NCBI GenBank assembly: GCA_029775855.1
Contig: JARVJZ010000001.1
Location: 224,001 to 288,000 of the forward strand
Reading direction: 5' to 3'
Length of the DNA stretch: 64,000 nt
From: Nitrososphaeria archaeon
GTDB taxonomy: Archaea; Thermoproteota; Nitrososphaeria; Nitrososphaerales; JAAOZN01
Under the pieces are notes generated by a model. That model saw only the letters and a list, made by a program, of their open reading frames with translations, was not told the DNA's origin and searched no databases. Of the stretch, positions 5,633 to 62,388 are shown piece after piece. Position 1 is the first letter of the stretch; every line of letters begins with the position of its first letter. The position numbers and the translations under genes were made by a program.

Positions 5633-5731
5633 TGGTGGACCGGGGGGGATTCGAACCCCCGACCTCCCGCGTGCGAGGCGGGCGTCTGCACCAGCCACAG
5701 CAGACTGCTCATACCACTGAACTACCGGCCC
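5633..5731 (-). tRNA. tRNA-Ala(CGC), CCA encoded, 23-nt intron at 23/24 (5686-5708)
   Basis: GGGCCGG/CCGGTCC acceptor stem, T-arm GGGGG-TTCGAAT-CCCCC, anticodon arm CCCGC-CT-CGC-AC-GCGGG; intron flanked by a BHB (GTAT/GTGC helix, bulges GAG and AGA). Confidence 0.95.
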
Positions 5732-11118: not shown

Positions 11119-11946
11119 TTGAGCTCTGCTAAAGAAACCCCAAACAAGCAGCAACTACCACCAAGTTTAGACTTGAAGAACTGGCTACCCTTTGTTAAGA
11201 AGTGGAGTATAATCACCGAAACCCTCTGGCTCATACCTAAGAGAGATAACAGTGGGTCGATGAAGGAGCTTCACCACGGTGAGTTCATCCCTCAGATACC
11301 TAGACAAGCCATACTAAGATTCACGAAACCCTATGAGTTGGTCATAGACCCCTTCGTCGGCTACGGCACTACACTCGTAGAATGCCAAAGGCTCGGTAGA
11401 AATGGTATAGGTGTTGAATTAGAGCGCCACATCGCAGAAGTCGCTAACCGAAGAATCAAAGAGGAACAAAACCCCTATAATGTAAAAGTTGAAGTCATAG
11501 AGGGAGACAGTAGTGACTTCGATTTTAATGAAATCCTTCACGAGAGAAACTTTGCTGAGGCATCGTTAATAATCGCACATCCCCCATATCACGATATTAT
11601 CAAATATGGTCAAGATCCTAGAAACCTTGCGAATGCCCGCACATTAGAAGATTTCCTTCAAGCATACGGCAAGGTTCTTGATAATGTGTTGAGAGTTTTA
11701 GCCAGAAGCGGATATTATGTGCTTGTTATTGGGGATAAGTATACGAAAGGGGAGTGGATTCCACTCGGATTTCATACGATGAACGAGACTCTCAAGCGAG
11801 GATTGAAGCTTAAAGCAATCTGCGTTAAAAACTTTGAAGAAACCATGGCTAAGCGTAGGCAGATTAACCTTTGGAAGTATAGAACATTAAAATTGGGGAC
11901 CTACTTCTTTAAGCATGAATATGTTATGTTCTTTCGAAAGGAGTAG
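11119..11946 (+). CDS. Orphan N4/N6 amino-DNA methyltransferase
   Basis: DPFVGYGTT SAM motif followed by HPPY, IGD and HEYVM. Confidence 0.8.
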   Translation: MSSAKETPNKQQLPPSLDLKNWLPFVKKWSIITETLWLIPKRDNSGSMKELHHGEFIPQIPRQAILRFTKPYELVIDPFVGYGTTLVECQRLGRNGIGVELERHIAEVANRRIKEEQNPYNVKVEVIEGDSSDFDFNEILHERNFAEASLIIAHPPYHDIIKYGQDPRNLANARTLEDFLQAYGKVLDNVLRVLARSGYYVLVIGDKYTKGEWIPLGFHTMNETLKRGLKLKAICVKNFEETMAKRRQINLWKYRTLKLGTYFFKHEYVMFFRKE

Positions 11947-19835: not shown

Positions 19836-20900
19836 ATGTCATCCCCAAAGACTACATTCAAGGATTTCTACCACATAGTTGTTGACAGCGGTCAATGCTG
19901 CGGCTGCGGTTCCTGTGTTGCTGTATGCCCCCTCTCGGCTTTAAGCTATCTTTACGATGAGACACTACCTGTGCTGGTTGGTAAATGCACAGACTGTGGT
20001 GTCTGCTTCAAAGCTTGCCCACGCTACAACTTTAATGTGGAGGAGGTGGAGAAGATGCTCTTTAATCGAACAAGAAGCGAAAGCGAAGTCTTCGGCGTGC
20101 ATCACAATATACTTGCAGCCAGGAGTCGCATCCCTGATGTGCTTAAGGTGTGTCAAGATGGGGGGTTAGTGTCCTCTCTACTCATATGGGCTCTTGAAAA
20201 TAAGGTTGTTGACGCAGCTGTTGTTGCAAGCTTTAACCCAGAAACTTGGGACGCTAAGCCAAGATTTGTTAGAACAAGAGAAGAGGTTCTCTCATCAGCC
20301 GGTACACGCTACACCTATAGCCCTAATAATCTGTTGCTGCGTGAAGCTGGGGCTAACAATATTAAAGTAGCCTTCGTTGGAACGGGGTGTGAAGTTGAAG
20401 CGGTTAGAAAGATGCAGTATCATAAGCTGAGGAAGAGTGTGGGCACAGTTGTCTTCACAATAGGTTTGATGTGCCACGAAAGCTACACGATGAATGGGCT
20501 AATAGACAAGAAGATACGCGGAGAACTGGGAATAGAGCCTAATCAAATAGCTAAAATGAACATCAAGGGTAAGATAATAATTGAGACAAAAGATGGTAAA
20601 GTTGCAGAAATAGGGCTAAAGGACGCTAGACAATATGTAAGGAAAGGATGCTTCTACTGCGGAGACTTCTCAGCGGAGCTAGCAGATATATCGGCTGGAG
20701 GCGCTGGTGCACAAGGCTGGACGATATGTGTAGTAAGGACAGATCAAGGTAAAAACATTCTTGAGTCTGCTGAGAAAGCTGGCTACTTGGAAATAGAGCC
20801 GATAGAGAAGCATAAATCATCATATGATACCGTAGTCAAGCTATCCAACATCCAGAGAAACAGAAGGGCAAAGGCTCTAAGCGGCGCCTTAAACATCTAA
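19836..20900 (+). CDS. FrhB/FdhB-family F420-binding oxidoreductase with N-terminal 2x[4Fe-4S] (FqoF/FpoF-like)
   Basis: Two CxxCxxCxxxCP motifs, QDGGLVS, GTRY, FVGTGC, IGLMC, GCFYCGDF..ADISAG. Confidence 0.9.
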   Translation: MSSPKTTFKDFYHIVVDSGQCCGCGSCVAVCPLSALSYLYDETLPVLVGKCTDCGVCFKACPRYNFNVEEVEKMLFNRTRSESEVFGVHHNILAARSRIPDVLKVCQDGGLVSSLLIWALENKVVDAAVVASFNPETWDAKPRFVRTREEVLSSAGTRYTYSPNNLLLREAGANNIKVAFVGTGCEVEAVRKMQYHKLRKSVGTVVFTIGLMCHESYTMNGLIDKKIRGELGIEPNQIAKMNIKGKIIIETKDGKVAEIGLKDARQYVRKGCFYCGDFSAELADISAGGAGAQGWTICVVRTDQGKNILESAEKAGYLEIEPIEKHKSSYDTVVKLSNIQRNRRAKALSGALNI

Positions 20901-25132: not shown

Positions 25133-25885
25133 TTGAAATACGGTAATATTATGTCTAGCACTGTGATTAAAGATATAAAGATAGCTGTAATCGGCGGCGC
25201 TGGGTTAGAAGGTAGAGCAATAGCATCAGAACTTGCAGCATCAGGATATGAAGTCTATATAGGCTCCAGAAACCTCTTTAGAGCACAAGAAGCAGCCCAA
25301 AAGATCGCAAAGACACGAGGTCTAAATGAGGAAAGAGTTATAGGAGCAACAAATGTAGAAGCCGCTAAAGCAGCCGATCTCGTGTTTCTAACAATACCAT
25401 ATGAAGCACTTAAAGACACGCTAGACCAACTTGCACAACATCTTATCGATAAACACATCGTCGATGTTATAGTTCCTTATAAACTCCGCTCACCCATGCT
25501 TCTTAATACAAGGCAGCTCGATAGGTATAGAAGCCACTTTGGCCCAGGGAAGAGCCCCTCAGTCACAGAAGAGATCTATCTATATCTACAAGAGGCTACT
25601 CAGCGTAGACCACACATTACAGCAGCACTTAAGACGCTCTCCTATAAGACGCTTGCTCTAAGCAAGAACATGAAGGAACCTATCCTAACTTGGGGTTACA
25701 ATTCAGAAGACATGCAGATTCTACTAAGCATCTTAAGGCAAGTCTTCCCAAACGCTGAATTAGTTGAAGTGCCTCAGATGTATTGGAGATCAGTAGAAGG
25801 GGTCTGTGAACTCATAAGATTCTTGACGCTGCAAGGCGTGAAGATAGAAGCATTAAACTTCTCGTATAGCCAAAGTAAGCAGTAA
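25133..25885 (+). CDS. Divergent F420H2:NADP+ oxidoreductase (Fno/NpdG-like)
   Basis: IAVIGGAGLEG, GSR, N.EAAK.ADLVFLTIPY; diverged C-terminal half. Confidence 0.6.
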   Translation: MKYGNIMSSTVIKDIKIAVIGGAGLEGRAIASELAASGYEVYIGSRNLFRAQEAAQKIAKTRGLNEERVIGATNVEAAKAADLVFLTIPYEALKDTLDQLAQHLIDKHIVDVIVPYKLRSPMLLNTRQLDRYRSHFGPGKSPSVTEEIYLYLQEATQRRPHITAALKTLSYKTLALSKNMKEPILTWGYNSEDMQILLSILRQVFPNAELVEVPQMYWRSVEGVCELIRFLTLQGVKIEALNFSYSQSKQ

Positions 25886-36116: not shown

Positions 36117-36425
36117 GTGATGGAAGGGTATAGAGAGAAGGTGTTAAGGACATTCAAGGAGCTTAGAGCTGCGCTTGAACAGCTCGATTCTGATGCCGGC
36201 ATTAGGGTTAAGGGTTCTTTAGCGGAATTTGATGATGGCGGCTTTATTTTCATAAGCAAAGCAGAGGAGGGGTTTATAATCAATATATGTGATAGCACAA
36301 AGGATGATAACGGTGTTCTTATCCCGAGCAGAAAGGAGAAGTGGTTAAACCTTAAAAGCGTAGCAGAGGTTATGGATTTCATCTTGAAGTCTGCCAAACG
36401 CCCTCTTAAAGCATACCTCTATTAA
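36117..36425 (+). CDS. Hypothetical protein
   Basis: 102-aa ORF filling the gap, with TATA upstream and plausible composition. Confidence 0.6.
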   Translation: MMEGYREKVLRTFKELRAALEQLDSDAGIRVKGSLAEFDDGGFIFISKAEEGFIINICDSTKDDNGVLIPSRKEKWLNLKSVAEVMDFILKSAKRPLKAYLY

Positions 36426-37366
36426 CCGCTAAACTTTGATATGACGCCTTCATATAATAAGTCTAAGGTTCCTTCATCATAGAAGTCTGGAAGGAAGAAT
36501 ATGAAGCGTTCAAACCCTAGCTCAGCATAAGTGTTTATAGCGGCAACCCAATCTTCGCTGCTCCCACATATATGAGGCTCGACTCCGATGTTAAGCGACT
36601 TAGCCTTAGCAAAAGCTTTCTCTCTTGACTTGTCAAGCACACCTACCCAGTGTAAAGATCTTCTTATGCTCTTAGCATCCCTACCTATGCTTCTACAGTG
36701 CTCATCAAGTATACTATTGAGCTGCTTAACCCTCTCTACGCTACCATTATAATTGCTCCAATCAGCGTATTGAGCCACAACTTTAAGCGTCAGCCTACCA
36801 CTTCCACCAACAGTTATCGGAGGATGAGGATGCTGTATGGGTTTAGGGTAGCAGTAAGCATCCTTTATCGAATAGTATCTTCCTTTAAAGCTAGGTTTTT
36901 CTTCGCACCACATCTTAGTTATTACCTCAAGACTTTCTTTCAGCATCAATATCCGAGTTGAAGCCTTAGGGTAGTCATAGCCGTAGCTTCTATATTCTGC
37001 CTCATACCAGCCGGCACCTATACCAAACTCCAGCCGCCCTTGTGAGATATTATCTAGGGTCGCGGCCATCTTAGCTACCAACGCGGGATTACGGTAAGAG
37101 TTACAAAGCACAAGCATACCAAGCCTAACTTTACGCGTTATAGGTGCAAGGTAGCTTAGCAGCATCCACCCCTCAAAGCACGGTCCGATACTCTCTGCCT
37201 TATATTGAATGAAGTGATCATAGAGCCAGATCGACTCAACCTTAGAGTTCTCACACCACCTCACAAAGTCAAATATCGTTTCTAAATACTTCTCCTTTGG
37301 AAGAGTATTAAGCTCACCATGCCAGCCTTGAGGCACCATCAACCCAAAAAGAACCAACTCTACCAT
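36422..37366 (-). CDS. LLM-class F420-dependent oxidoreductase
   Basis: WLYDHF, YRNPALVAKMAATLD.IS.GR..FGIGAGW, PKP.Q.PHPPI.VGG. Confidence 0.92.
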   Translation of the reverse strand: MVELVLFGLMVPQGWHGELNTLPKEKYLETIFDFVRWCENSKVESIWLYDHFIQYKAESIGPCFEGWMLLSYLAPITRKVRLGMLVLCNSYRNPALVAKMAATLDNISQGRLEFGIGAGWYEAEYRSYGYDYPKASTRILMLKESLEVITKMWCEEKPSFKGRYYSIKDAYCYPKPIQHPHPPITVGGSGRLTLKVVAQYADWSNYNGSVERVKQLNSILDEHCRSIGRDAKSIRRSLHWVGVLDKSREKAFAKAKSLNIGVEPHICGSSEDWVAAINTYAELGFERFIFFLPDFYDEGTLDLLYEGVISKFSG

Positions 37367-37385: not shown

Positions 37386-38231
37386 TTAAGAGTTAAGCTG
37401 TTTAGCAGCCTTCACGAGGTTACTTAACAGCATTGTAATCAACATAGGCCCCAAACCACCTGGGACTGGCGTTATGGCTGAAGCTCTCTTCAACATATCG
37501 TCAAAGTCTACGTCGCCTACAACTTTGCCCTCAAGGTAGTTGTTTCCAGCGTCTATTATGACCGCTCCAGGTTTTATATGCACGCTTTTAATCAGCTTTG
37601 GCTTCGCTACATCCACTAAAAGCAGATCTGCTTCAGAGACGCAGCTTGGGACTGATGCTAGATCTTTAGGGTGAAGCCTAACTTTGGCGCCTAGATTCAG
37701 TGAAAGGGCTGCAAACGGTCTGCCTAAGATCACGCTGTCTCCCAAGATGTGTATGGTGTTTCCGTCGAAGTTGAATGATGACTGCTTGGCTAAATCTAGC
37801 GCCGCTAATGCGCCTGCTGAGACAAAACATTCTCTGCCAGCAAGTAGTAGACCGAGGCTTGATGAAGTGATGCCATCTACATCCTTCTCCACTGCGATTT
37901 GATCTATAGCTTTCTGTTCGTTGATATTCTTTGGTAGGGGTAGTTGGATGAGTATGCCGTGCACCTTCGGATCTTCATTTAGAGAGCGTATCATCTCATG
38001 TAATGCGCTCTGCTCTGTCTGCTCTGAAAGTGTAATTACTTTAGCTTCTGCGCCTATCCCTAGGCATGCTTCTGCCTTCCGCTTCACATAGTTTGCTGCG
38101 CCCCCGAGGTCTCCAACATGGATTAAAGCTATGGTGGGCACGATTCCCTTTTCTCTGAGTTTAGCGACTTGTTTAGAAAGCTCGCTTCGAATCTCTTTCG
38201 AACGCTCTCTTCCATCAAGTATCTTAACCAA
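37386..38231 (-). CDS. folD: FolD-family methylene-THF dehydrogenase/cyclohydrolase, divergent
   Basis: YVKRK, GILIQLPLP, KDVDG, GDVDF, TPVPGGLGP; the usual PCT and GRS motifs are replaced. Confidence 0.88.
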   Translation of the reverse strand: MVKILDGRERSKEIRSELSKQVAKLREKGIVPTIALIHVGDLGGAANYVKRKAEACLGIGAEAKVITLSEQTEQSALHEMIRSLNEDPKVHGILIQLPLPKNINEQKAIDQIAVEKDVDGITSSSLGLLLAGRECFVSAGALAALDLAKQSSFNFDGNTIHILGDSVILGRPFAALSLNLGAKVRLHPKDLASVPSCVSEADLLLVDVAKPKLIKSVHIKPGAVIIDAGNNYLEGKVVGDVDFDDMLKRASAITPVPGGLGPMLITMLLSNLVKAAKQLNS

Positions 38232-38313
38232 AACCCGCTCTCCACTTAGCGGAAGGAAGCTCTATTTTAGCTTTGAAAAACTCTAATAGTGATATGTTGT
38301 AAAGGTAGTTGGT

Positions 38314-39138
38314 TTGCTTAAAGTTGTATTCGCCAAAATAGGCATGATAGGCATAACCCCGATGATCGAAGGCTTGTTCGATGAAAGAGCTGTGCGCACA
38401 GATATTGTTGTTAGGTCGGTCTACTCAGGTTGTAAAATGGAGCCTTTTGACGCTAAAGAAGTGGTTGAAGCGGCTTTAGCTTTTAAACCTAACCTTATAA
38501 TCTTCGTATCCCCTTACTTACAAGGTGAAGGACCTTTAGAAGCGGTTGACCTCCTTTCTAAATGTGGTGTGCCTACTTGTGTTATAACCAATACTGCTTC
38601 AAAGGCAGTCTTAGATAAGTTAGAGATGAACAGTATCGGCTACATAGTTGTAGATGCAGATCCCATGATAGGTGCTAAAAAAGAGTTTCTTGACCCAGTT
38701 GAGATGTGCCTATTCAACAGTGACATAATAAGGGTTCTAGCGCTAACAGGGGTCTACAGAGCCATACAAGTTGAAGTGGATAAGATTATCAACTCCATCA
38801 AAAAAGGTGTTAAACCATATCTTCCTACGCTTATCTTAGATAAAGAGAAAGCTCTCAATTACGCTAACTACCAGAACCCATATGCTGCCGCTAAAGCGAT
38901 GGCTGCTTTCGAAGCCGCTAGGCTCGTCGCTGAACTTTCTACGCGAGGCTGCTACGCTGTCAAAGATGCGGTGAAGGCGCTTTACTATGTCTCAGCTTCA
39001 CACGAAGTTATGCGTTTAGCTTCGCTGCTAGCCGATGAAGCTAGAGAGATAGAAAAGGGCAAAGATAGGGTTGAGAGGCTGATACACTTAGCTGACGGAA
39101 CAGTAATCAGAAGGCTCAAGCTCTTAGATGGGTTATAA
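38314..39138 (+). CDS. mtd: F420-dependent methylene-H4MPT dehydrogenase homolog
   Basis: DERA.R, SG.KM, ADPMIGAKKEFLDPVEM..FN.D, NPYA.AKAMAA, ASHE, AREIEK. Confidence 0.92.
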   Translation: MLKVVFAKIGMIGITPMIEGLFDERAVRTDIVVRSVYSGCKMEPFDAKEVVEAALAFKPNLIIFVSPYLQGEGPLEAVDLLSKCGVPTCVITNTASKAVLDKLEMNSIGYIVVDADPMIGAKKEFLDPVEMCLFNSDIIRVLALTGVYRAIQVEVDKIINSIKKGVKPYLPTLILDKEKALNYANYQNPYAAAKAMAAFEAARLVAELSTRGCYAVKDAVKALYYVSASHEVMRLASLLADEAREIEKGKDRVERLIHLADGTVIRRLKLLDGL

Positions 39139-39357: not shown

Positions 39358-40254
39358 CTACCACCATTTACAGCTATGTTTTGGAGTTTTCTCATTCTTA
39401 GCTGGCTTTCTGAATACAAATATGTGTTCGTGCATGATCTTATAGAAGTCGTAGTATCTGCCTCGCCATCTCCCTCGATCTGACATGACATTATGCTGTA
39501 ATTTTATTATATCCTCTTTCAAAACAAACCCAGCGTCTAAAAATTGCTGCATTACTCTGAAGGCTATAGGGATGAAGTGTCTTTGCTTCCGTGTATCACC
39601 TATAAGGATGCCGCAATATTTATTCTCCTTTAGCACTCTGTAGGATTCATCAGCTATCTTTCTCATAGCGCGCAAATACTCTATAAGATTAAGATTAGAG
39701 ATGTCTCCTTCTATTCGTTTCTTGCTGTAAGGTATGATATAAGCGTATGGTGGATGAGTGACTATAAGGTCAATACTTTCATCCTTAATCTCACTAAGTT
39801 TTCTTGCGTCACCCACATAGGTTCGTAGGATCGGTTCTTTGTAGTCTGAATTAAGGGGATTATAAGTGAAGTTTAACCTATCAAGTGTAACCATTATTGC
39901 ATCGGGATTTATATCAACACCTATGCCATTTCTTTGTAATAATTTGCATTCGACTAAAGTGGTGCCGCTGCCAACCATCTGGTCTAAGACCCAGTCACCT
40001 TTGTTTGAATACTTCAGAATCAGGTTACGGGGAATAAATGGTGAGAAGTTCCCCCGGTAGTCACCTATGTGAGTAGCCCAATCACCTCTATCTGGGAAAC
40101 TCCACACGGTCGTGCCTTCTAGCATGTAATCTTGCTTCGGTGCATATCGCCCAATCTTCCAAGAACCGTGAAGCTTGACTCTATGCCCCTCTATCAAGAC
40201 TTCTTTGTTATTCTTTAGGAATGTGATGTAATCTTCGTGTGTTATTTCTTTCAT
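39358..40254 (-). CDS. Orphan N4/N6 amino-DNA methyltransferase
   Basis: TTVWSFPDRGDWATH, DQMVGSGTT, THPPY, IGD, HEHIF; ATG 40254 preferred. Confidence 0.85.
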   Translation of the reverse strand: MKEITHEDYITFLKNNKEVLIEGHRVKLHGSWKIGRYAPKQDYMLEGTTVWSFPDRGDWATHIGDYRGNFSPFIPRNLILKYSNKGDWVLDQMVGSGTTLVECKLLQRNGIGVDINPDAIMVTLDRLNFTYNPLNSDYKEPILRTYVGDARKLSEIKDESIDLIVTHPPYAYIIPYSKKRIEGDISNLNLIEYLRAMRKIADESYRVLKENKYCGILIGDTRKQRHFIPIAFRVMQQFLDAGFVLKEDIIKLQHNVMSDRGRWRGRYYDFYKIMHEHIFVFRKPAKNEKTPKHSCKWW

Positions 40255-40422
40255 ATCTGCTACCCTTCTACACCCATCTTCTTTACTAATCACCTTTTTC
40301 TTCTACATATATCTCTCTTTAAGATAGGCAATTAATGTTGCTCTTTGGCTGCTTTAGCAAAATTGTGATAATAATTAGTATATGAATGTTTATTTCATAC
40401 ACATATAATCAATATAATGCAG

Positions 40423-41472
40423 TTAGGCGATCTTAACACCCTTGACTATGACCCCTCTGCCTCTAACAACTTTACCTATAGGTTTTGCGTCAAAACCGTG
40501 TCTTTTAAAGATCTTCCCAACCTCGTCTACACAATCACCTCTGGTTACTACACAGAAGCCTACCCCCATGTTGAATGTGCGATACATTTCTTCATTACTT
40601 AACTCACCTTCTTTTTGAATCAGCTTAAAGATAGGCTGAGGCTCAGGCGGATCGTCGAGATTAAACCCTAGATTTGAGCCTTTGGTTAAACGAGTAAGTT
40701 TAGAGAAAGCACCTCCAGTGATATGCGCTAACCCTGAGACGTAGATCTTCTTTCTTAGGATTTCGAGCACGGGTTTAACATAGATTAATGTAGGCTCGAG
40801 TAGTTCATCCCCTAGACTACGGTTTAACGGTGGAACTGTCTCATCTAAACTGTATTTGTTTAAGAGAAGCTTCCTAGCAAGGGTTAGACCGTTTGAATGT
40901 ATGCCTGAGCTGTTTACACCAACGACCACTTCACCAACATCTATCTTCTCCCCAGTCACCAAATTATCCTTCTCAACCAAGCCTACTACCGCGCCGGCTA
41001 GATCGAAGGTTCTCTCATCTTCAGCCAAAAGGTCTGGTAGAACAGCGGTTTCACCTCCTACAACCGCTACATCAGCCATAGATGCGCCTTTAGCAACGCC
41101 TTCAGCCACCTCTTTAATCAGATGCTCATCAGGCTTCTTTAAGGCGAGGTAGTCTAGCAATGCTAGCGGCTCAGCACCCACACAGATGATGTCGTTGACG
41201 TTCATAGCTACGCAGTCTATGCCTACGGTGTTGTATCTGTTTAGCTTCTGCGCTATAATTACCTTTGTGCCAACCCCGTCTATGTGCAAGGCAAGGAGCC
41301 TACCATCATTCAAATCTATTAGCCCAGCGTAGTGCCCTATGCCATAATAGACTGAGCCGACTTTCCCTCTTCTGAATTTGAAGGTTGATGAGAATATCTT
41401 CGCAAGCTCGTTTTGTCTACGCTTTATCTCATTTACATCCACTCCAGCCTCGGCGTAGGATTTGGGCTTCAT
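40423..41472 (-). CDS. purM: AIR synthase
   Basis: YAEAGVD, DGVGTK, GGETA, SSGIHSNG, HITGG, TFNMG. Confidence 0.97.
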   Translation of the reverse strand: MKPKSYAEAGVDVNEIKRRQNELAKIFSSTFKFRRGKVGSVYYGIGHYAGLIDLNDGRLLALHIDGVGTKVIIAQKLNRYNTVGIDCVAMNVNDIICVGAEPLALLDYLALKKPDEHLIKEVAEGVAKGASMADVAVVGGETAVLPDLLAEDERTFDLAGAVVGLVEKDNLVTGEKIDVGEVVVGVNSSGIHSNGLTLARKLLLNKYSLDETVPPLNRSLGDELLEPTLIYVKPVLEILRKKIYVSGLAHITGGAFSKLTRLTKGSNLGFNLDDPPEPQPIFKLIQKEGELSNEEMYRTFNMGVGFCVVTRGDCVDEVGKIFKRHGFDAKPIGKVVRGRGVIVKGVKIA

Positions 41473-41511
41473 CCCTCTGTTGGTATGCTGCCCTCTTATT
41501 TTACTACTCCG

Positions 41512-42360
41512 CTAAAGGCGTCTTCCAGATATGAGTTCGTAGGCTGTTATGTATCTTCTTAAGGTTTCTTCTACAAGGTCTGGAGGCAGATTTGGTGGTG
41601 TAGGTGGCTGCAGACCAGCCTTCCTAGCCTCCTCTAACTTATCTCTAAATGAAACCTTAATCAGCCAGTCTCTAACGATCTGTTTATCGTAGCTCTTCTG
41701 CTCCTCTCCAACTTTATACTCTGACTTTAGCCAAAGTCTAAATTCGTCTGGACCGAGTGAGTCTGCGAGTATGATCTTGCCTTCTTTATCTCTTCCGAAC
41801 TCAAACTTTACATCAGCGATTATAAAGCCAGCTCTTTCGGCTTGCTTCTTCATCTCAGTGTAGAGTTTGATTGAGTTTTCTTCGAGTTGGTTGTATTCCT
41901 CTGCTGTTAGAAGGCCTTGTGCAACCGCATCTACTTTAGTTATGGGTAGGTCTTTGGTTTCAGACTTTGTCGTTGGGTCGAAGACTGGTTCGGGTAGTTC
42001 TTCTGCAAGCTTCAGATCTTTATCTACCCTAATCAGACCCTTTTTTATTCGCTCGTAGTAGCTTCCGTAATTGTATCCTCTAACCACACACTCTAAAGGT
42101 ATCATATCTAGCTTCTTAGTAATCATTTTGTTTGGATGGATTATTTCGAGCATGTGGTTAGGGTAAGGTAGCACTCTGAACCAAAATTCGCTGAATCTGC
42201 ATAGCACCTCACCCTTTCTGGGTATGGGTGTGGGAAGCACCACATCAAACGCTGAAACTCTATCTGAGAAGACGAACATCAACCTATCTTCGCCATATTG
42301 GTAGACATCCTTAACTTTACCACTTTTTATGAACCTTAAGTTTGATGATGGTGCAGCCAT
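41512..42360 (-). CDS. purC: SAICAR synthase
   Basis: GKVKDVY, SDRVSAFD, ECVVRGY, DVKFEFG, SYDKQ. Confidence 0.96.
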   Translation of the reverse strand: MAAPSSNLRFIKSGKVKDVYQYGEDRLMFVFSDRVSAFDVVLPTPIPRKGEVLCRFSEFWFRVLPYPNHMLEIIHPNKMITKKLDMIPLECVVRGYNYGSYYERIKKGLIRVDKDLKLAEELPEPVFDPTTKSETKDLPITKVDAVAQGLLTAEEYNQLEENSIKLYTEMKKQAERAGFIIADVKFEFGRDKEGKIILADSLGPDEFRLWLKSEYKVGEEQKSYDKQIVRDWLIKVSFRDKLEEARKAGLQPPTPPNLPPDLVEETLRRYITAYELISGRRL

Positions 42361-42800
42361 TAAAGCTTCCCTCTTCTGTAAAGCATAACCTTCTCCTGTA
42401 TGCTTGGATCCTTTAACCCTAAGATCTCAGCTGCAAGCAGAGCCCCATTCTCTGGGTTATCAACCCCTACACATGCTACTGGCACTCCTCTGGGCATCTG
42501 AACGATGGAGAGCAGTGAATCAAGACCAGCAAGTGCTTTATTAATTGGGACACCTATTACAGGCTTAACGGTTCTTGATGCTATGTAGCCTGGCAAGTGA
42601 GCTGATAATCCAGCGATGGCTACGAACACCTCAGCCTTAGAGTTTGAGATGTATATGTCTAAATCCTCGGGGTTTCTGTGCGCTGATAAATAGGCTACAT
42701 CATACTTTAGGTTTAGCTTACTTAGAACATCCTCTGCTCTCTTGACATATTCAGCATCACTTTTAGAGCCTGCGATGATGCAGATGGGTGCTTCACCCAT
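42360..42800 (-). CDS. purE: N5-CAIR mutase
   Basis: GSKSD, SAHRNP, AGLSAHLPG, VQMPRGVPV. Confidence 0.96.
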   Translation of the reverse strand: MGEAPICIIAGSKSDAEYVKRAEDVLSKLNLKYDVAYLSAHRNPEDLDIYISNSKAEVFVAIAGLSAHLPGYIASRTVKPVIGVPINKALAGLDSLLSIVQMPRGVPVACVGVDNPENGALLAAEILGLKDPSIQEKVMLYRRGKL

Positions 42801-44285: not shown

Positions 44286-45782
44286 TTGGGTTTGAATGGC
44301 GTCGAGTACATAAATAGAGCTTTAAACCTTTCATCACTTGGAATATATATTCACGCAATCACGATAGCTATAGTGTTAGGCTTCTCCTTAGCACTACTCA
44401 TATTAGAGTTAATAGGTATAAGGCGAAAAGACGCCCTTCTCTTAAAAGCCGCTAAAACAATATCCTTGGTTATTCTCATCGTCTTCGTCTACGGAGCAGC
44501 CACTGGCACACTTGTCGAATTTGGGCTACTACAAGTTTGGAGTGGTGTGCTTTTGGTGGCTGGGAGCTTTGCCTTCATACCCTTCTACCTCGAGCTCATA
44601 GCATTCGTTTTAGAGGCTGCTACACTTATAGCCCTCTACTACACCTGGGGTAAGTTTCGCAACCCTTGGTCCCATTGGATGTTAACACTCACATACACCT
44701 TCGCAGCCTTCCTCTCAGGAGCTCTTATAACATCTGTTAACTCTTGGATGCAAGCACCTTGGGGTGTTGGAGATGTTGTTAAAATGATCTATCCTTGGGC
44801 ACCTACTTATGGTCCTCTGGTTGTTAATGTCGATTTCCTCATAAGTTTGAAGGATGCTTTAGTTTCAGCAAGTGGTAGTGTAGGCGGAGGAGTTGCGTTG
44901 GTAAATCCAGAGATTCTAAGCACATTATCCGCTAAATTCGGTGAGCTACTTAACGACCCTTGGATAGCTTTGAAGAGCCCCTACTCTAATCAAAGCATAC
45001 TTCACCAGCTTTTAGCATCATCTTCAGTAGGCGTATTCTGGGCTGCTTCAGGCTTCGCTCTTCTAATACTTAGAAAAAAGGGAGAGAGCGAATACTACTT
45101 CAAGGCTGTAAAGACGCTTGCTGCCATAGGTGCGGTTCTGGTCTTGGCTCAAGGAGCAACAGCCCATTGGATGGGTGCCGTTGTGTATGAATATCAACCA
45201 ACAAAATTTGCTTTAATAGCTGGCTTAGATGTCTCAAAACCAGATCCAATAGTTGGGCTTACAATGTTTGGTGACCCAAATTACATCTTTGACGGCTTTG
45301 ATAAATTAGTTGAAGCGGCTAAGAATCATCCTAACCCTAATCTTATTATAGGCGGTGTTTCTGCTGCTGAAATCGCAGTAGCTGATACTGTTGCAGCATC
45401 TAAAAACATGAATCTTGTTTACCCGATGTATACGACTAAGGTTGCTGTAGCTGGTTTAAGCCTACTTATTTCCCTTGCAATCCTTTCAATCTTCGTCTTC
45501 AGGAGATTCTGGGAGGGGAGAAGAAGTCTTCTAGTTTATCTGGCTTTGACTATGGGGTTGTTCACGCCGCTTATGTCTGGTTTAGGTTGGGCTGTAAGAG
45601 AGATCGGGAGAAAGCCTTGGACAGTATATGGACTCGTCTATCCTCATGAGATCATTACACCACTAGGAGGCTCAACATGGGTTGCTACCGTTGTCATAGG
45701 AGGCTTAGTTGTTGGCTTCATATTGATGTGCTTAACGATCTACCTAGCCTTAACTAGGAGGTTAAAGATAGGAGGTAAATAA
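44286..45782 (+). CDS. cydA: Cytochrome bd oxidase subunit I
   Basis: IH, GAATG, NSWMQAP, YQPTK, GWAVREIGRKPW. Confidence 0.92.
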   Translation: MGLNGVEYINRALNLSSLGIYIHAITIAIVLGFSLALLILELIGIRRKDALLLKAAKTISLVILIVFVYGAATGTLVEFGLLQVWSGVLLVAGSFAFIPFYLELIAFVLEAATLIALYYTWGKFRNPWSHWMLTLTYTFAAFLSGALITSVNSWMQAPWGVGDVVKMIYPWAPTYGPLVVNVDFLISLKDALVSASGSVGGGVALVNPEILSTLSAKFGELLNDPWIALKSPYSNQSILHQLLASSSVGVFWAASGFALLILRKKGESEYYFKAVKTLAAIGAVLVLAQGATAHWMGAVVYEYQPTKFALIAGLDVSKPDPIVGLTMFGDPNYIFDGFDKLVEAAKNHPNPNLIIGGVSAAEIAVADTVAASKNMNLVYPMYTTKVAVAGLSLLISLAILSIFVFRRFWEGRRSLLVYLALTMGLFTPLMSGLGWAVREIGRKPWTVYGLVYPHEIITPLGGSTWVATVVIGGLVVGFILMCLTIYLALTRRLKIGGK

Positions 45783-45783
45783 G

Positions 45784-46893
45784 ATGGACCCGCTACCCGC
45801 GCTACTGGTTTTAGCTTTCGTGTTGTTGGTGCACCTAACATTTGTAAACATAAACATAGGCTTAGGCTTCCTTAGCGTTGCAGCAAGATGGAGATCTAAA
45901 AGCGACCCAAAGGCTGAAGAATTATCAAAGCACTCGGTTAAATTTGTCGCAGCGAACGAAGTGGTCTCAGGAGTCTACGGCACACTCATCACTGTAATCC
46001 TATTCGGATTCTGGACAGGTTTTGTCAACGTTGTGGTGCAGGTACTCTTCTTCGCTTTACTTATCAGCGTGATAGCTATAATCATTAGGTTGACATCCAT
46101 CGCGGCATACTGGTATACTTGGGGCAGAATCGGGGTTAATGCACACCTTATTATAGGCTTGATCATGGCTATTTCTGGTCTCTTCATACCAGCAGGCTTC
46201 AGATACATCTTCGCATTCATGAATAACCCTGCTGGACTTATGCGTATATCTCCTTTGGAGGGGGATGTGGCTGCTGCTCTCTCTAACCCCCTTTATCCGC
46301 CACTGCTACTACATACTTGGGTCGGCGCTCTGTCAATAGGCTTCTTAGCTGCTGCCACTGGATTCGCTTGGGCTTCTAAGCGCAGCGAGTATCTCAGAGG
46401 CTGGGCTGCTAAAACAGCTCTAGTCGGGGCGCTTCTAATAATTCCACAGGGAATTGTGGGCTTCTGGTATTGGTCAAGCCTCAGCAGCCACTCACCAATC
46501 TTGTTCAACGCGCTCAACATTGGGTTGATAAGCGGAGTTTCTGCGCAGACGAATGTCTCACACTCTTTTCTCGCGATGGTTTTGATCGGCCTTTACTTAC
46601 TAACAGCTGGTCTCATCTACTATGCTGAGCCAAGTAGGATACGGTTAGCCTACACACTAGCACCTTTATCCATACTATCACTATACTTCGGTGAAATAAC
46701 TCAAAACTGGGGTAGGATGCCCTATCTCATATTGCAAGGAGACACAGGTTTAGATGTGAATCTTTTCGTGAATAAGTTGGTGTATATAGATGCAGCGACT
46801 ATAATGATAGCCATAGCACCTATTGCTGTGATAACTATAGGGTTTGTTGCTCTCCTCTACCACTACCTAGTTAAAGGCTTCATGGAGAGTTAA
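45784..46893 (+). CDS. CydA' second subunit of a CydAA'-type bd oxidase
   Basis: CydA-like (VHL, SGVYG, FMNNPAG, NPLYPPLLLHT, GR.PY) rather than CydB-like. Confidence 0.8.
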   Translation: MDPLPALLVLAFVLLVHLTFVNINIGLGFLSVAARWRSKSDPKAEELSKHSVKFVAANEVVSGVYGTLITVILFGFWTGFVNVVVQVLFFALLISVIAIIIRLTSIAAYWYTWGRIGVNAHLIIGLIMAISGLFIPAGFRYIFAFMNNPAGLMRISPLEGDVAAALSNPLYPPLLLHTWVGALSIGFLAAATGFAWASKRSEYLRGWAAKTALVGALLIIPQGIVGFWYWSSLSSHSPILFNALNIGLISGVSAQTNVSHSFLAMVLIGLYLLTAGLIYYAEPSRIRLAYTLAPLSILSLYFGEITQNWGRMPYLILQGDTGLDVNLFVNKLVYIDAATIMIAIAPIAVITIGFVALLYHYLVKGFMES

Positions 46894-57216: not shown

Positions 57217-57849
57217 ATGCGGCGTAGAGACCTTCTTAAACTAACCTTTACAGCCGCTCCCATATTACTTCTACCAGCATCATCTGCACTACCCCAGCGG
57301 AAACGCTACGCTATGTTGATTGACGTCGAAAGATGCTATGGTTGTATGGCTTGTGTTGCTGCATGCGCAGCTGAGAATAATGTGCCTATTGGCGTCTTTA
57401 GAACTTGGGTTGAAAGGTACGTTAGAAAGGATGGAAATGTAGTATTTGTACCTAAGCAGTGTAATCACTGCGAGAATCCTCCTTGTGTTAAACCTTGTCC
57501 TACTGGCGCCACTTTCAAGAGGGAAGACGGTCTTGTGCTCATTAACGACGAAATATGTATAGGTTGTGGAGCCTGCATCCAAGCTTGCCCTTATGGTGCC
57601 AGATTCCCGAACCCTGTAAAGGGTGTTGCTGATAAATGCACTTTTTGCGAACATAGGTTGGCAAACGGGTTGTTACCAGCTTGCGTAGAAGCTTGCCCAA
57701 CGACCGCCAGAATCTTTGGAGACCTTAATGACTCAGAAAGTGAGATAAGTAAGATAGTTGAGTCATCTAATGTGCAAGTTTTGAAGGTATGGGCTCACAC
57801 TGAGCCTAAGATCTACTACAAGAGTCTACCTACGGAGGCTGATCTCTGA
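57217..57849 (+). CDS. TtrB-like 4x[4Fe-4S] subunit with Tat signal
   Basis: MRRRDLLK; CYGCMAC, CNHCENPPC, CIGCGAC..ACPY, KCTFC..PAC. Confidence 0.92.
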   Translation: MRRRDLLKLTFTAAPILLLPASSALPQRKRYAMLIDVERCYGCMACVAACAAENNVPIGVFRTWVERYVRKDGNVVFVPKQCNHCENPPCVKPCPTGATFKREDGLVLINDEICIGCGACIQACPYGARFPNPVKGVADKCTFCEHRLANGLLPACVEACPTTARIFGDLNDSESEISKIVESSNVQVLKVWAHTEPKIYYKSLPTEADL

Positions 57850-58964
57850 TGAGCCTGAGTGCACCTCTATTTCCCAACGAGCTCGCTGAACCTATCCTTT
57901 GGCACCCAGTCATTTTTGCATATGCCCTCGTCATCTCCGGTGCTGATCTAATCATACTAGCTTCGCTGGCATACATCTCAAGAAGGATGATGAAGGCGAT
58001 ACCTTTACTCCTTGTGCTCGGAGTCTCATTCTTTTCAGCGGCGCTGTTAGGTCCTCTTGCAGACCTGCGACAACCTTCACGTGCCTCGCTAATATACTCG
58101 TTAGCGCACCTATTCCCAACAGCGACAAATCCTGGATTCTCATTTATAGCATTGTACGCCAACCTTTGGCTGCTACTGTTAATCCTAAGTATAGCCTTTC
58201 TGCTCATTTACCAGTCGTATCCCATGCACCTCAAGTCGTTGGAGGGTGGTAGGTTGAAAAGCCTCTACAAGGTGTTTTCTCTCGGTGTTAGTGATGGGGA
58301 GAGATACAGGAGGCTCGCTTCCCTCATCACTGTAATCGCTATCTTAACGATCATACCAGCTGTGCTGTGGGGAGTTTATCCATCTGTGTTACTGGTCTTT
58401 CAGACTTGGATCTTCCTTTGGCGAAGCTGGGTTATTTTACCAGTGATCTTCTTTGCCGACACCTTCGTTGCATCTACAGCTGCAGCTCTTCTAGTCTACT
58501 TCATCATCAAGTTGGGTAAGCTGGATCAAGAGGTGGTAAGCCCTCTACTTAAGATACACTCTGCTGGCTGCGTTTCGGTCACAGGGCTGTTAGGTGTGCA
58601 GCTTCTGCTCTGGAACCAGTGGTTTGAAGAATCAGCATTATACCCAGCATTCAATGTCGTTGTACCTATAATCTACTTTGTTATAGCGACTCTACTACTC
58701 TCATTCCTTTTGGCTTTAGCTTCATTGAAAGTTCCTAGGTTAAGTATAATAGTTTCAATAGTTGCTCTGGTAGGCGTCGTAATGAATAAGTGGAACACGT
58801 TAGTGAATGGTCAGCTCATTTCAAGAACAGGCATGGGTTTGTTTGATCTACATCTGCCAACAGACTGGCTTCTGACAACAATTTCACCTATAGCTGCGGC
58901 TATATTGATCTTCGTTATTCTCTCATCACTCTTCCCATTGGAGGTGAAAGAAGTTGGTAAGTAG
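57849..58964 (+). CDS. NrfD/TtrC-like membrane anchor
   Basis: Multiple TMs, ADLRQP.R, C-terminal GQ. Confidence 0.88.
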   Translation: MSLSAPLFPNELAEPILWHPVIFAYALVISGADLIILASLAYISRRMMKAIPLLLVLGVSFFSAALLGPLADLRQPSRASLIYSLAHLFPTATNPGFSFIALYANLWLLLLILSIAFLLIYQSYPMHLKSLEGGRLKSLYKVFSLGVSDGERYRRLASLITVIAILTIIPAVLWGVYPSVLLVFQTWIFLWRSWVILPVIFFADTFVASTAAALLVYFIIKLGKLDQEVVSPLLKIHSAGCVSVTGLLGVQLLLWNQWFEESALYPAFNVVVPIIYFVIATLLLSFLLALASLKVPRLSIIVSIVALVGVVMNKWNTLVNGQLISRTGMGLFDLHLPTDWLLTTISPIAAAILIFVILSSLFPLEVKEVGK

Positions 58965-61900
58965 AAGAGGGTTCGTTAAAGGTATTATTGGCTTAGCCGC
59001 TGCAGGCACATTCGCGGCTGGCTACGCTCGAATAGTGGAGGAGATGGTAAAACCCACATACACACCCATACAGCCAGACCCAACTATCGGTGATAAGGTG
59101 AAATACGTTTACAGCTCTTGCCTCGGATGCAATGTGAGGTGTGGCATAAGAGCGAAGGTTGTTGAGCGAGAGGGTGTTAGTGTTGTTGAGCGAATAGAGG
59201 GGAACCCCTATCACCCATATAATAGGCTTGTAAACCCGTCTTCACAGTACACCAGATTTGACCCACTACCATACAGCACACCCGCTGTTAAGAGCTTAAA
59301 ATACGCTGGCACACTATGCGCAAGGGGGCAAGACGGCATACACTACCTTTATGACCCTTATCGTATTAAATCGCCTTTAAAGAGGGCTGGAGCAAGAGGA
59401 AGTGGTAAGTGGAAAAAGATAAGCTGGAGCCAACTTATCAAGGAGGTAGTTGGAGGCGGTGTAGTGGAGGAGACGGGTGAGAGAATACCAGGCCTAAAAG
59501 AGATCTTTGTATACGGCATACTTAGAGACGCTGGCATACAAGATCCTAACAAGATATTAAGCGAAATTAAAAAGGACATAGACTCAATAGTTCAGAACGC
59601 ACCAAAGCTTACAGCAGACGAGTTAAAAGACGAAATACAAAAGTTCAAAGACAAGTGGTCAAAGCAGCTGAGCGAAAATAGTGTAAAACTAGAGCAGATA
59701 CTCATCAACCCAGACATGCCAGATTTGGGATTTAAATCAAACCAACTAGTTTTCGTCAGAGGTAGGGGGCAAGCCCACGCGGACGACTTCTATCAACGCT
59801 GGACCTACGCCTTTGGAAGTGTAAACTGGCTTAGGCACACTTCAGCCTGCCAACTAGGCTTCTACTGCGGAAACAGAATATGGGCTGGCACAACAGACCT
59901 GAGCCCAGATGTCAGAGGAGCTAAGGTCTTGATTATGGCTGGAGCTCAAATAGGTAGACTACACCCTGGCGCTACTGGCCAAGGTTTGATTATTGAGCGT
60001 GCAGCAAAAGGCGAGTTGAAGGTCTTCTATGTTAATCCAGTGTCGCCACGTGGGGATTGTGGCGGCAATTTCGAGTGGGTGCCTATAAAGCCGGGTAGTG
60101 ATGCAGCCTTAGCCTTGGCTATAGTGAGGTGGATCTTTGATAATAAGAGGTTCAATAAAGCCTTTCTTGAATCTCCAAACGAGGAGGCTGCAAAATCTAA
60201 AGGTGAGGTAGTATATACTAATGCTACTTGGCTTGTGGTAACAGAGCCTAACCATGCTAAAGAAGGTGTATTCCTTAGGGCAAGCGACTTGGGCATAGGT
60301 GATAGCAGTAAGTACGTTGTATATGCTGATGGTTTTAAGGCGCATACAGATGTGAAGGCAGCTGAGATACTCTATAAGGGTAGAGTAAAGCTCGCCTCAG
60401 GCGAAGAGGTTGAAGTTAAGACAGCCCTTCAGATACTCAACGATGAAGCTGCAAGCAGGAGCCTGGATGAATGGAGCGCAATATGTGGCGTGCCTGTTCA
60501 AACCATCATACGTATGGCAGAGGCTTTCACAAGTGTAGGTAGAGCAGCCTCAACATACATACACCGAGGCATAGCGATGCACCCTCAAGCAGAATATAGT
60601 GTGTGGGCATATAGAGCGCTAGATCTGCTTATCGGAAACTACTTCGCTAAAGGAGGTGTCATGGGAAGAGCGTCAACAACCAACTTCAACGGATACCTTT
60701 ACAACGTCGGCACGTCTAGCTTCGGTGAGCCTGTTAGATTTGGCCCATATATAGATCGCCACGGCGTGGTTTATGAAAGTACGTTAGAGTATTGGTTAAA
60801 GAGCAAGTCTGGTTTATCACCATATCCAGCTAAAAGGCCCTGGTATCCTCTTACCCCAGAAGAGAGCTATACCGAGTTGTTTGCAGGAATCAGCGAGGAA
60901 TATCCATACCCTATACGAGCACTATTCCTCTACTATGCGAACCCAGTTATATCAGCCAACTATGGGTTAAAGTTCATCGAAGTTCTTAAGGATACACAGA
61001 AGCTGCCCCTCTTTGTTGCTATAACTACATCCATAAATGAGACATACTTGTACGCTGACTACATTGTGCCAGACACAACCTATCTTGAGACTGGAACATT
61101 AGGCTGCCAATACCTTTACGCATCTAGCGGTGGGGTATCTTTAGCTGAGAGCTGGAGGACAATGGTCATACCACCTCTAACCGATGAAATTGGCAGAGAC
61201 CCTGCTGGCAGAGTCAGATACGCTTCAATGTGGGAGTTTCTAATCGACATAGCCAAGGCTTTAGGTATGCCTGGGTTTGGTGAAAACGGGATTAAAGGCG
61301 CTACCGGAGGTAAATACGAAGGGAAGAGCTTTCCGCTAAACAGCCTCTGGGACTACATTATGCGTGTGTACGCTAATGGAGCTATGGATGCGGTGCGCAG
61401 AAAGATCGTGCCTAGCGAAGTGCCTAAGGAAGATGTAGAGTTTGTAGAAAGTAATTATCCCATAGCGGAATATAGAGACATAATACCAGACGAGTGGCCT
61501 TATGTAGCCTATGTCCTAGCAAGAGGAGGAGTATTCACAAGCTACAAAGACTCTTACGATGAAAAAGGCTTCGTAAAACGAACCCCCCCTCGAACTTTAT
61601 TAGAATTCTGGGATGAAAGGCTTGCACAAACAAGAAACAGCATCACAGGTAAACGCTTCTACGGTGGGCCAAAATACTTCGAACCCTCAACCTACGCACC
61701 TATAGCTGAAGAGGCTGGTGAGAGATGGCAGCCAGGCACTCCGCTGAGGAGGATATGGAGTGAAGCAGAGTATCCGATGCTTATAGTGCCTAATGGTAGC
61801 CCACTCTTCACTAAGCATCGCAGCCAATTCTACTATTGGCTTAAGCAGATCATGCCCAGAAACTTCGCTGTTATACATCCAGACGACGCATCAAAGATAA

Positions 61901-62388
61901 ATGTAGCCACTGGAGACATCATTAAGATAGAGACGCCAAATGGCTCTCTTGAAACACCAGTGTTGGTGGAGCCTACAGTAGCTAGAGGTGTTATAGCTAT
62001 TCCAGTGGGAATGGGCAGGTGGGTTGAAAATGTTGTAAGCAAGCCTAAGTACTTCCAAAGTTCAAATCTGCAGAAGCACATTGATGAGTTGCCTAATACT
62101 GTGGTGATACCGGAGGAAGCTGTGAATCCTGTTAAGAAGCTGCCTAAGGTTGTTAAGAAGCTACTCTTTACAAAGTCGCAAGCATCTTATTATGATAATG
62201 GGCTTTCATACGATGAGTGGAGGTTTAATGGTATCACACCAACACCAATCTCTTCAAACGATCCTTCACTAGGTGGTTGGCCTCTGCTGTCTTGGCTAGG
62301 TGCTTCACAAGTCTACTTCTATACTCCAGCTAGAATATCTAAGACTGGTAGATCTGAGAAGATCTGGTTTACAGAAGCAGTTTGGTAG
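58954..62388 (+). CDS. Mo/W-bisPGD catalytic subunit, TtrA/archaeal arsenate reductase clade
   Basis: SRRGFVK Tat signal, CLGCNVRC...CARG, GNPYHP, PLKRAG.RG.GKW, HTSAC, ADYIVPDTTYLE. Confidence 0.9.
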   Translation: MVSRRGFVKGIIGLAAAGTFAAGYARIVEEMVKPTYTPIQPDPTIGDKVKYVYSSCLGCNVRCGIRAKVVEREGVSVVERIEGNPYHPYNRLVNPSSQYTRFDPLPYSTPAVKSLKYAGTLCARGQDGIHYLYDPYRIKSPLKRAGARGSGKWKKISWSQLIKEVVGGGVVEETGERIPGLKEIFVYGILRDAGIQDPNKILSEIKKDIDSIVQNAPKLTADELKDEIQKFKDKWSKQLSENSVKLEQILINPDMPDLGFKSNQLVFVRGRGQAHADDFYQRWTYAFGSVNWLRHTSACQLGFYCGNRIWAGTTDLSPDVRGAKVLIMAGAQIGRLHPGATGQGLIIERAAKGELKVFYVNPVSPRGDCGGNFEWVPIKPGSDAALALAIVRWIFDNKRFNKAFLESPNEEAAKSKGEVVYTNATWLVVTEPNHAKEGVFLRASDLGIGDSSKYVVYADGFKAHTDVKAAEILYKGRVKLASGEEVEVKTALQILNDEAASRSLDEWSAICGVPVQTIIRMAEAFTSVGRAASTYIHRGIAMHPQAEYSVWAYRALDLLIGNYFAKGGVMGRASTTNFNGYLYNVGTSSFGEPVRFGPYIDRHGVVYESTLEYWLKSKSGLSPYPAKRPWYPLTPEESYTELFAGISEEYPYPIRALFLYYANPVISANYGLKFIEVLKDTQKLPLFVAITTSINETYLYADYIVPDTTYLETGTLGCQYLYASSGGVSLAESWRTMVIPPLTDEIGRDPAGRVRYASMWEFLIDIAKALGMPGFGENGIKGATGGKYEGKSFPLNSLWDYIMRVYANGAMDAVRRKIVPSEVPKEDVEFVESNYPIAEYRDIIPDEWPYVAYVLARGGVFTSYKDSYDEKGFVKRTPPRTLLEFWDERLAQTRNSITGKRFYGGPKYFEPSTYAPIAEEAGERWQPGTPLRRIWSEAEYPMLIVPNGSPLFTKHRSQFYYWLKQIMPRNFAVIHPDDASKINVATGDIIKIETPNGSLETPVLVEPTVARGVIAIPVGMGRWVENVVSKPKYFQSSNLQKHIDELPNTVVIPEEAVNPVKKLPKVVKKLLFTKSQASYYDNGLSYDEWRFNGITPTPISSNDPSLGGWPLLSWLGASQVYFYTPARISKTGRSEKIWFTEAVW

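Follow-up and report, generated by a model that had tools for sequence, protein, structure and literature searches.

The DNA analyzed here, called the window, is a stretch of 64,000 nucleotides from a Nitrososphaeria archaeon (GTDB lineage Archaea; Thermoproteota; Nitrososphaeria; Nitrososphaerales; JAAOZN01), namely positions 224,001 to 288,000 of contig JARVJZ010000001.1 in assembly GCA_029775855.1. It harbors a FolD-like gene and an mtd gene in head-to-head arrangement, and behind the first a gene for an F420-dependent luciferase-like oxidoreductase (LLM). The three products may belong to one conserved module of one-carbon metabolism, all acting on the same pterin carrier, which is most likely tetrahydrofolate (H4F); we give this reading a probability of about 0.5. 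The locus is composed as follows, in window coordinates:

36422..37366, minus strand: LLM gene, F420-dependent luciferase-like oxidoreductase of the TIGR03560/Rv1855c family (PF00296, 155.6 bits)
37386..38231, minus strand: FolD-like gene, 281 amino acids (aa), an AG-type FolD with intact folate and cyclohydrolase residues and a remodelled NADP pocket
38232..38313, no strand: folD/mtd intergenic region, 82 base pairs (bp) between the divergent genes, with A/T-rich stretches
38314..39138, plus strand: mtd, 274 aa, a type II Mtd, divergent paralogue of F420-dependent methylenetetrahydromethanopterin dehydrogenase

The coordinates of the open reading frames (ORFs) bear out the layout given by the first-pass annotation, with folD and mtd diverging from the 82-bp gap and the LLM gene 3' of folD. 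The LLM gene lies on the same strand as folD, 19 bp downstream of its stop codon, and because of this spacing it is probably co-transcribed with folD. Two A/T-rich stretches can be read in the gap, TATTTTA at 38264-38270 and TCTAATAG at 38284-38291; they are candidate archaeal TATA boxes and could serve either folD or mtd. The window has a G+C content of about 43-44%, and its gene content is archaeal, including topoisomerase VI, a tRNA-intron endonuclease, a RIO kinase and a thiolase with an adjoining OB-fold protein. Among the protein clusters, one member is identical to the window FolD-like protein, and the LLM and Mtd proteins have counterparts that are 99% identical.

The FolD-like protein matches both FolD domains over its full length (PF00763, 117.8 bits, residues 5-119; PF02882, 138.6 bits, residues 124-278). 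It resembles the bifunctional FolDs of known structure (3l07, 1a4i and 4b4u) in its two-domain fold, in a full-length match with an E-value of 2.5e-57 and in 7 of 7 folate and catalytic residues. The AlphaFold2 model has a predicted local distance difference test score (pLDDT) of 95.5 and a template modelling (TM) score of 0.96 to 3l07, with values of 0.93-0.96 across the solved FolDs. Unlike these enzymes, it has lost 6 of 8 near-invariant NADP residues, falls in a separate clade and scores below the NCBIfam FolD cut-offs: the best model gives 242.3 bits against a cut-off of 423, and the protein is below the cut-off in all 25 models listed of the 30 matched. The motifs YVKRK, IQLPLP, KDVDG and PVPGG are kept, VSAGA is found at the position of the canonical (P/S)CTP and GDS at that of GRS, and the alignment agrees with the motifs first reported (YxxxK, IQLP, KDVDG and PGG kept, PCTP changed to SAGA, GRS changed to GDS). 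Both changes are fixed in the 29 FolD rows of the window clade, one of them identical to the window protein, with GGS in P0002 as the sole exception. There are 28 clusters of relatives at 74-100% identity, and the next ones have only 50%. The gene had been called degenerate, which is the wrong word for an intact and conserved protein. A decaying FolD or pseudogene was ruled out by the intact ORF, the 28 clusters, the pLDDT of the model and the fixed replacements.

The residues that contact substrate and cofactor are listed for human FolD in the available text of PMC3368264, with 13 in the NADP site and 7 in the substrate and catalytic site (Y52, K56, Q100, L101, D125, G273 and G276). They were placed on the window protein by hand through pairwise alignment, and tabulated over 127 sequences consisting of the window protein, six FolDs derived from mtd loci and the best 120 matches. 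In this table, 56 sequences have Ala-Gly instead of Cys-Thr in the CTP motif and are called AG-type; the 71 canonical FolDs used for comparison are nearest matches rather than a random sample of FolD. All seven substrate and catalytic residues are present in the window protein (Y48, K52, Q96, L97, D119, G258 and G261) and retained in both groups. The NADP site of the window protein is identical to the human one at 3 of 13 residues (S166, I168 and G229). Eight positions of the site show at least 97% invariance in the canonical FolDs, and the window protein has other residues at six of them, keeping S166 and G229 alone. The changes in human numbering are T148G, R173D, H196P, S197K, A215D, C236A and I238N (G140, D165, P188, K189, D207, A228 and N230 in the window protein). 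The canonical sequences have T148 in 71 of 71, R173 in 70, H196 in 71, S197 in 69, A215 in 70 and T279 in 71, while the AG-type sequences have G148 in 54 of 56, D215 in 55, N238 in 56 and L279 in 56. The 2'-phosphate triad R173/H196/S197 is absent from the AG-type FolDs, where the window protein reads D165, P188 and K189.

As far as the alignment can tell, the dinucleotide pocket of the AG-type FolD is rebuilt and was then held constant, not decayed, because the replacements are fixed and the pyrophosphate loop survives. In a FolD tree from a quick search, a branch with a support of 99 sets the canonical sequences apart, which matches the split found for Mtd. Two FolD relatives outside the window, P0032 and P0033, have "PAA" at the CTP motif. 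In the tree their branches come between the canonical FolDs and the AG-type ones, and they may represent an intermediate form.

The Mtd protein resembles the enzyme of Methanopyrus kandleri (1qv9) in matching the Pfam family over its full length (PF01993, 311.8 bits, residues 3-272; E-value 9.7e-59 to 1qv9), in the fold of its predicted model (TM 0.83) and in just passing the equivalog cut-off. It differs from canonical Mtds in belonging to a distinct clade, in changes at near-invariant residues and, as far as the seven type II loci of Bathyarchaeia are concerned, in having fhs and folD as neighbours instead of ftr, fwd, mch and mer. In a tree of 95 rows, 21 are split from 74 canonical Mtds with a Shimodaira-Hasegawa-like approximate likelihood ratio test support of 99; this tree also comes from a quick search, and some long branches were flagged elsewhere in it. 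These 21 rows, called type II, consist of 10 from the window clade, P0149, P0151, seven Bathyarchaeia loci, P0150 and P0157.

The four motif changes noted at first in Mtd (GNIG to GMIG, DERADR to DERAVR, SPN to SPY and RTPH to RLIH) are real departures from 121 canonical sequences. Position 11 is Met in the window and Asn, Cys or Ala in 71, 39 and 9 canonical Mtds; position 27 is Val, against Asp in 74 and Glu in 46; position 68 is Tyr, against Asn in 112; and position 257 is Ile, against Pro in 120. All 10 Mtds of the window clade share these changes. There are 59 invariant columns in an alignment of 46 Mtds, and the residues near-invariant in the 121 canonical sequences but changed in the window are V5, V27, Y68, V78, N93, A95, A222 and I257. 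Some changes are common to all type II Mtds, namely Gly to Val or Thr at 5, Asn or Cys to Met, Tyr or Phe at 11, Asp or Glu to Val or Ser at 27, Ala to Cys at 40 and Pro to Ile or Val at 257, so that three of the four first noted (11, 27 and 257) are also found in the second, Bathyarchaeia clade. Others are exclusive to the window clade, at sites that both other groups conserve (N68Y, R78V, D93N, P95A and Y222A). The ratio of nonsynonymous to synonymous substitution rates (dN/dS) is 0.07 over 164 Mtd codons between the window and locus L035, a relative with readable DNA, with dS near saturation.

The gene context was analyzed in at least 80 Mtd loci obtained by a scan of genome contigs, a sample that nearly missed the window clade (only the partial locus L035 belongs to it). 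Among the 80 loci listed, 7 have fhs and 37 have ftr, fwd or mch as neighbours, none has both and 36 have neither. The fhs gene adjoins mtd divergently in seven Bathyarchaeia loci (L002, L003, L004, L005, L009, L028 and L066), and folD directly follows fhs in six of them, the contig of L028 ending first. These seven are exactly the loci that fall in the type II part of the Mtd tree. The genes ftr, fwdBAC and/or mch lie beside mtd in 37 of the other 73 loci listed, none of which has fhs or folD, and they were found beside type II mtd in 0 of the 7 loci listed. A Fisher test of 7/0 against 0/72 gives 3e-10, a value that counts as few independent events because the seven loci form one clade. The linked Bathyarchaeia Fhs scores 795.7 bits, above its equivalog cut-off of 652, and the linked FolD fails its own like the window protein (281 against 423 bits). 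All six FolDs linked to type II mtd are AG-type and lie inside a single AG clade with 21 members. Thus folD and mtd have remained neighbours across lineages whose proteins share only about 41-50% identity.

Linkage inside the window clade was deduced from contigs of matching size in base pairs and from consecutive accession numbers, not from read sequence. The FolD cluster P0003 and the Mtd cluster P0139 share 11 matching contigs among the 15 members listed for each, some of only 3.1-4.7 kb. In the LLM clusters, 20 of the 30 members listed are on contigs that match FolD- or Mtd-bearing ones, and one FolD and one LLM have consecutive accession numbers. Altogether, the LLM-folD-mtd trio is present on at least 20 other contigs, so the linkage, whose conservation was a matter to be checked after the first-pass annotation, is not unique to this genome, and within the window clade the trio seems to be a stable unit. 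For the AG-type FolDs P0030-33, P0045 and P0053, contig matching gave no Mtd partner among the members listed, which is uninformative.

The genes on the other side of mtd were also inspected:

40423..42800, minus strand: purM, purC and purE (Pfam AIRS/AIRS_C, SAICAR_synt and AIRC), convergent with mtd

They are not claimed for the module. In L035 (1-2468), purM and purC come directly after mtd, and both are also neighbours in the window. Between mtd and purM the window has an ORF for a DNA methyltransferase (39358-40293, minus strand; PF01555, 101 bits), which looks like an insertion, because purM directly follows mtd in L035.

These neighbours bear on the possibility that the gene order was simply inherited, without any functional link, and that the sequences changed by lineage drift. 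In favour of it, the window clade has identities of 74-85%, synteny in so narrow a clade could reflect relatedness alone, and purM and purC are conserved neighbours too. Drift does not account for a folD-mtd neighbourhood kept between clades as distant as the window lineage and Bathyarchaeia, for substitutions that are fixed and aimed at one binding pocket, or for the low dN/dS of Mtd, and we regard this explanation as very improbable. Two other analyses have no bearing on the claim. No Mtd-FolD fusion was found in the best 150 of 185 profile matches from 1.84 billion representatives, the longest having 370 aa, and a FolD-Mtd complex prediction from paired alignments scored 0.00, which speaks in neither direction. 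The 370-aa Mtd representative, P0414, comes from outside the window and has about 96 residues beyond the Mtd domain.

The LLM protein passes the TIGR03560 subfamily cut-off (238.7 against 231.4 bits) and fails both Mer models (TIGR03555, 70.4 against 348.7 bits; NF002619, 70.8 against 276). Its nearest solved structure is 3rao (78.5 bits), Mer 8qpl coming third to fifth (65.8 bits), and its relatives form a tight clade of their own with 9 clusters at 73-99% identity. Membership of the Mer family was ruled out on these scores. The suggestion that this enzyme could be the reductase of the module holds in part: the protein is not Mer, but the linkage is kept, and the conserved operon position suggests that it belongs to the module with folD and mtd. 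In the mtd-mer pair of the tetrahydromethanopterin (H4MPT) pathway, an F420-dependent enzyme of the LLM fold is likewise encoded beside the methylene/methenyl dehydrogenase. In two canonical loci, whose H4MPT contexts include a metagenome-assembled genome (MAG) named "Nitrososphaeria archaeon", a true mer directly follows mtd (L016 11139-12143, 443.8 bits, and L021 11108-12115, 417.9 bits; cut-off 348.7). By analogy with this pair, the LLM could be a methylene-carrier reductase. It differs from that pair in its TIGR03560 family and in being co-oriented with folD and not with mtd, and a function as F420-reducing dehydrogenase, providing F420H2, is equally possible for it. F420 metabolism is prominent in the window, since besides the trio there is a protein similar to FrhB/FpoF that has two 4Fe-4S motifs (19836-20900, plus strand; 239.3 bits against a cut-off of 269) and a weak match to NADPH-dependent F420 reductase, or Fno (25133-25885, plus strand; 82.7 against 149.8 bits).

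What is observed is a conserved gene order, the patterns of residues and the split in the phylogenies; from these we infer the substrate, the cofactor use and the direction of the reactions as follows. As its canonical NADP(H) pocket is rebuilt, the FolD would act mainly or only as methenyl/10-formyl cyclohydrolase, having given up NADP-linked hydride transfer. The type II Mtd would carry out the adjacent methenyl/methylene redox step on the same carrier, with F420 in place of NADP. In the sister clade from Bathyarchaeia the pair is joined to Fhs, and the route, with F420H2 providing the electrons, would lead from formate to the 10-formyl, methenyl and methylene forms. The LLM of the window lineage would either reduce the methylene carrier further or supply F420H2. 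Fhs and FolD work through N10-formyl intermediates, which is folate rather than H4MPT chemistry, and since the linked Fhs and the folate site of FolD both look ordinary, the carrier is most likely H4F. The potential of F420H2 (about -350 mV) favours the reduction of methenyl-H4F (about -300 mV) more than NADPH does; as an acceptor for the oxidative reaction, F420 is inferior to NADP, which is a point against the proposal.

A separate dehydrogenase and cyclohydrolase have a precedent. MtdA is an NADP-linked enzyme from a protein family other than that of Mtd, and Fch is unrelated to FolD. In Methylobacterium extorquens the two are encoded together as parts of the folate module; according to the available text of PMC539335, MtdA, which acts on both H4F and H4MPT, and Fch are in one operon of Methylobacterium. 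The window pair would differ in that the proposed dehydrogenase uses F420 and the cyclohydrolase is a FolD that gave up its NADP pocket.

Published reconstructions are partly in line with this proposal. Two pSL12-like marine Thaumarchaeota MAGs are described, in the accessible part of bioRxiv 10.1101/2019.12.22.886556, as having an incomplete H4MPT pathway, mtd in both and a complete H4F pathway, and the FolD cluster nearest the window clade has one member labelled as marine mesopelagic. PMC10640624, as far as its text is available, places the gain of FolD and Fhs in the ancestor of mesophilic Thaumarchaeota, and its main text makes no mention of methanopterin or mtd. A full-text literature search covering titles, abstracts and passages found no description of an F420-dependent methylene-H4F dehydrogenase or of an fhs-folD-mtd cluster. 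The pairing of a FolD with a remodelled NADP pocket and a divergent Mtd paralogue is conserved and apparently undescribed.

The same enzymes could instead act on one non-folate carrier. Fhs, AG-type FolD, type II Mtd and perhaps LLM would then share an archaeal, methanopterin-like pterin, the folate-type enzymes having adapted to it. In some archaea MetF probably stands in for Mer, which would be a parallel, and modified methanopterins are found in many non-methanogenic archaea. It is also in keeping with this idea that FolD and Mtd changed together as a pair and that the family membership of Mtd by score is intact. However, N10-formyl chemistry is unfavourable on H4MPT, FolD has all seven folate-contact and catalytic residues unaltered, the linked Fhs is by its score an ordinary formate-tetrahydrofolate ligase, and the reconstructions of related lineages just cited include a folate pathway (bioRxiv 10.1101/2019.12.22.886556 and PMC10640624, in their available parts). 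A shared carrier other than folate is in our opinion quite improbable.

Several observations weigh against an F420-linked module on folate. The AG-type FolDs keep the G-x-S-x-x-x-G-x-P pyrophosphate loop, with G164, G170 and P172 invariant and S166 nearly so, and K/R198 is replaced by Asp or Glu in 49 of the 56. The retained glycine loop and the acidic residue are compatible both with loss of the cofactor and with binding of NAD(H), of which the altered pocket could still be capable. The window Mtd passes the NCBIfam model NF002162, narrowly (308.7 against 297 bits), while the Bathyarchaeia type II Mtd clears the Mtd equivalog cut-off easily (382.6 bits), and in the accessible text of two F420 reviews (PMC8498797 and PMC8518648) the characterised Mtds are described as H4MPT enzymes only. 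No fhs adjoins the folD/mtd pair in the window clade, and the pSL12-like MAGs are not tied to particular sequences in our trees. Finally, the available text of PMC10321748 assigns to two Bathyarchaeia orders a folate methyl branch and the reductive glycine pathway together with a complete H4MPT Wood-Ljungdahl pathway. The presence of both fits a specialised second Mtd paralogue and also an ordinary isoenzyme, so that type II Mtd is possibly a second H4MPT isoenzyme. Fhs, ftr, fwd, mch and mer were not found among the 62 window ORFs scanned.

Most of these points would be accommodated by two co-regulated pools, in which the AG-type FolD remains bifunctional but changed from NADP to NAD(H) and the type II Mtd still works on H4MPT or an H4MPT-like carrier. 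The genes would then be adjacent for joint regulation of the one-carbon pools, or for transfer of one-carbon units between them via formate or formaldehyde. The missing 2'-phosphate triad, the acidic residue at 198, the surviving loop, the equivalog scores of type II Mtds and the full H4MPT pathway of the Bathyarchaeia orders (PMC10321748) all speak for two pools. A switch from NADP to NAD leaves unexplained the changes on the nicotinamide side, T148G, A215D, I238N and T279L, each found in 54-56 of the 56 AG-type sequences. Nor do two pools account for the absence of ftr, fwd and mch beside type II mtd in the seven loci (against 37 of the other 73), or for the retention of mtd when the remaining H4MPT pathway could not be found, as in the MAGs of bioRxiv 10.1101/2019.12.22.886556. 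We consider this arrangement possible but unlikely. The proposal of the first-pass annotation, a FolD acting only as cyclohydrolase and an F420-dependent Mtd on folate, is partly supported by the selective replacement of NADP-site residues, the company of fhs and folD and the report of an orphan mtd, although this FolD could bind NAD(H) and the carrier could be an archaeal pterin.

The single-carrier module could be extended to a complete F420-driven folate one-carbon branch in Bathyarchaeia and non-ammonia-oxidising Nitrososphaeria. Fhs would activate formate, the NADP-free FolD would be a pure cyclohydrolase, the type II Mtd would be the first F420-dependent methylene-H4F dehydrogenase, and the TIGR03560 LLM would be an F420H2-dependent methylene-H4F reductase, a Mer analogue on folate. 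This extension is speculative, and we hold it to be rather unlikely in its full form.

Other features were found in the window. There is a large molybdopterin oxidoreductase cluster (57217-62388, plus strand) composed of a 4Fe-4S subunit, a 371-aa ORF and a 1144-aa catalytic subunit. The 4Fe-4S subunit scores 225.6 bits with the TtrB model and 191.4 with DsrO, and the catalytic subunit scores 485 with TtrA against a cut-off of 1750; the cluster is similar to tetrathionate or thiosulfate reductases, yet under all cut-offs. Two adjoining ORFs (44286-46893, plus strand) match cytochrome bd subunit I with 193.5 and 73.7 bits, and they are a CydA and CydA-like pair, not CydA and CydB. A second N6_N4_Mtase ORF is present at 11119-11946. 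A tRNA of 99 nucleotides (5633-5731, minus strand) was detected by Rfam with 52.8 bits. Its anticodon as read by ARAGORN has an odd four bases ("ggct"), and this archaeal tRNA probably bears an intron.

The folate route, NAD(P)-linked and bacterial in type, and the methanopterin route, F420-linked and archaeal in type, are treated as separate toolkits, and genome surveys count Mtd as evidence of an H4MPT pathway and FolD as a full dehydrogenase/cyclohydrolase. If the module proposed here is real, neither survey reading would be right for a sizeable group of archaea from sediment and soil, an "orphan mtd" would no longer be puzzling, and it would be necessary to revise how formate assimilation, the reductive glycine pathway and Wood-Ljungdahl variants are reconstructed for Bathyarchaeia and deep-branching Thaumarchaeota. 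F420 enzymes would gain a new class of substrate, and the pair would be a natural case of a bifunctional enzyme passing one activity to an unrelated partner. The claim is testable with three small soluble proteins. Should the complete F420-driven branch exist as well, these archaea would run formate assimilation, by reductive glycine or methyl-branch routes, on F420H2 and not on NAD(P)H.

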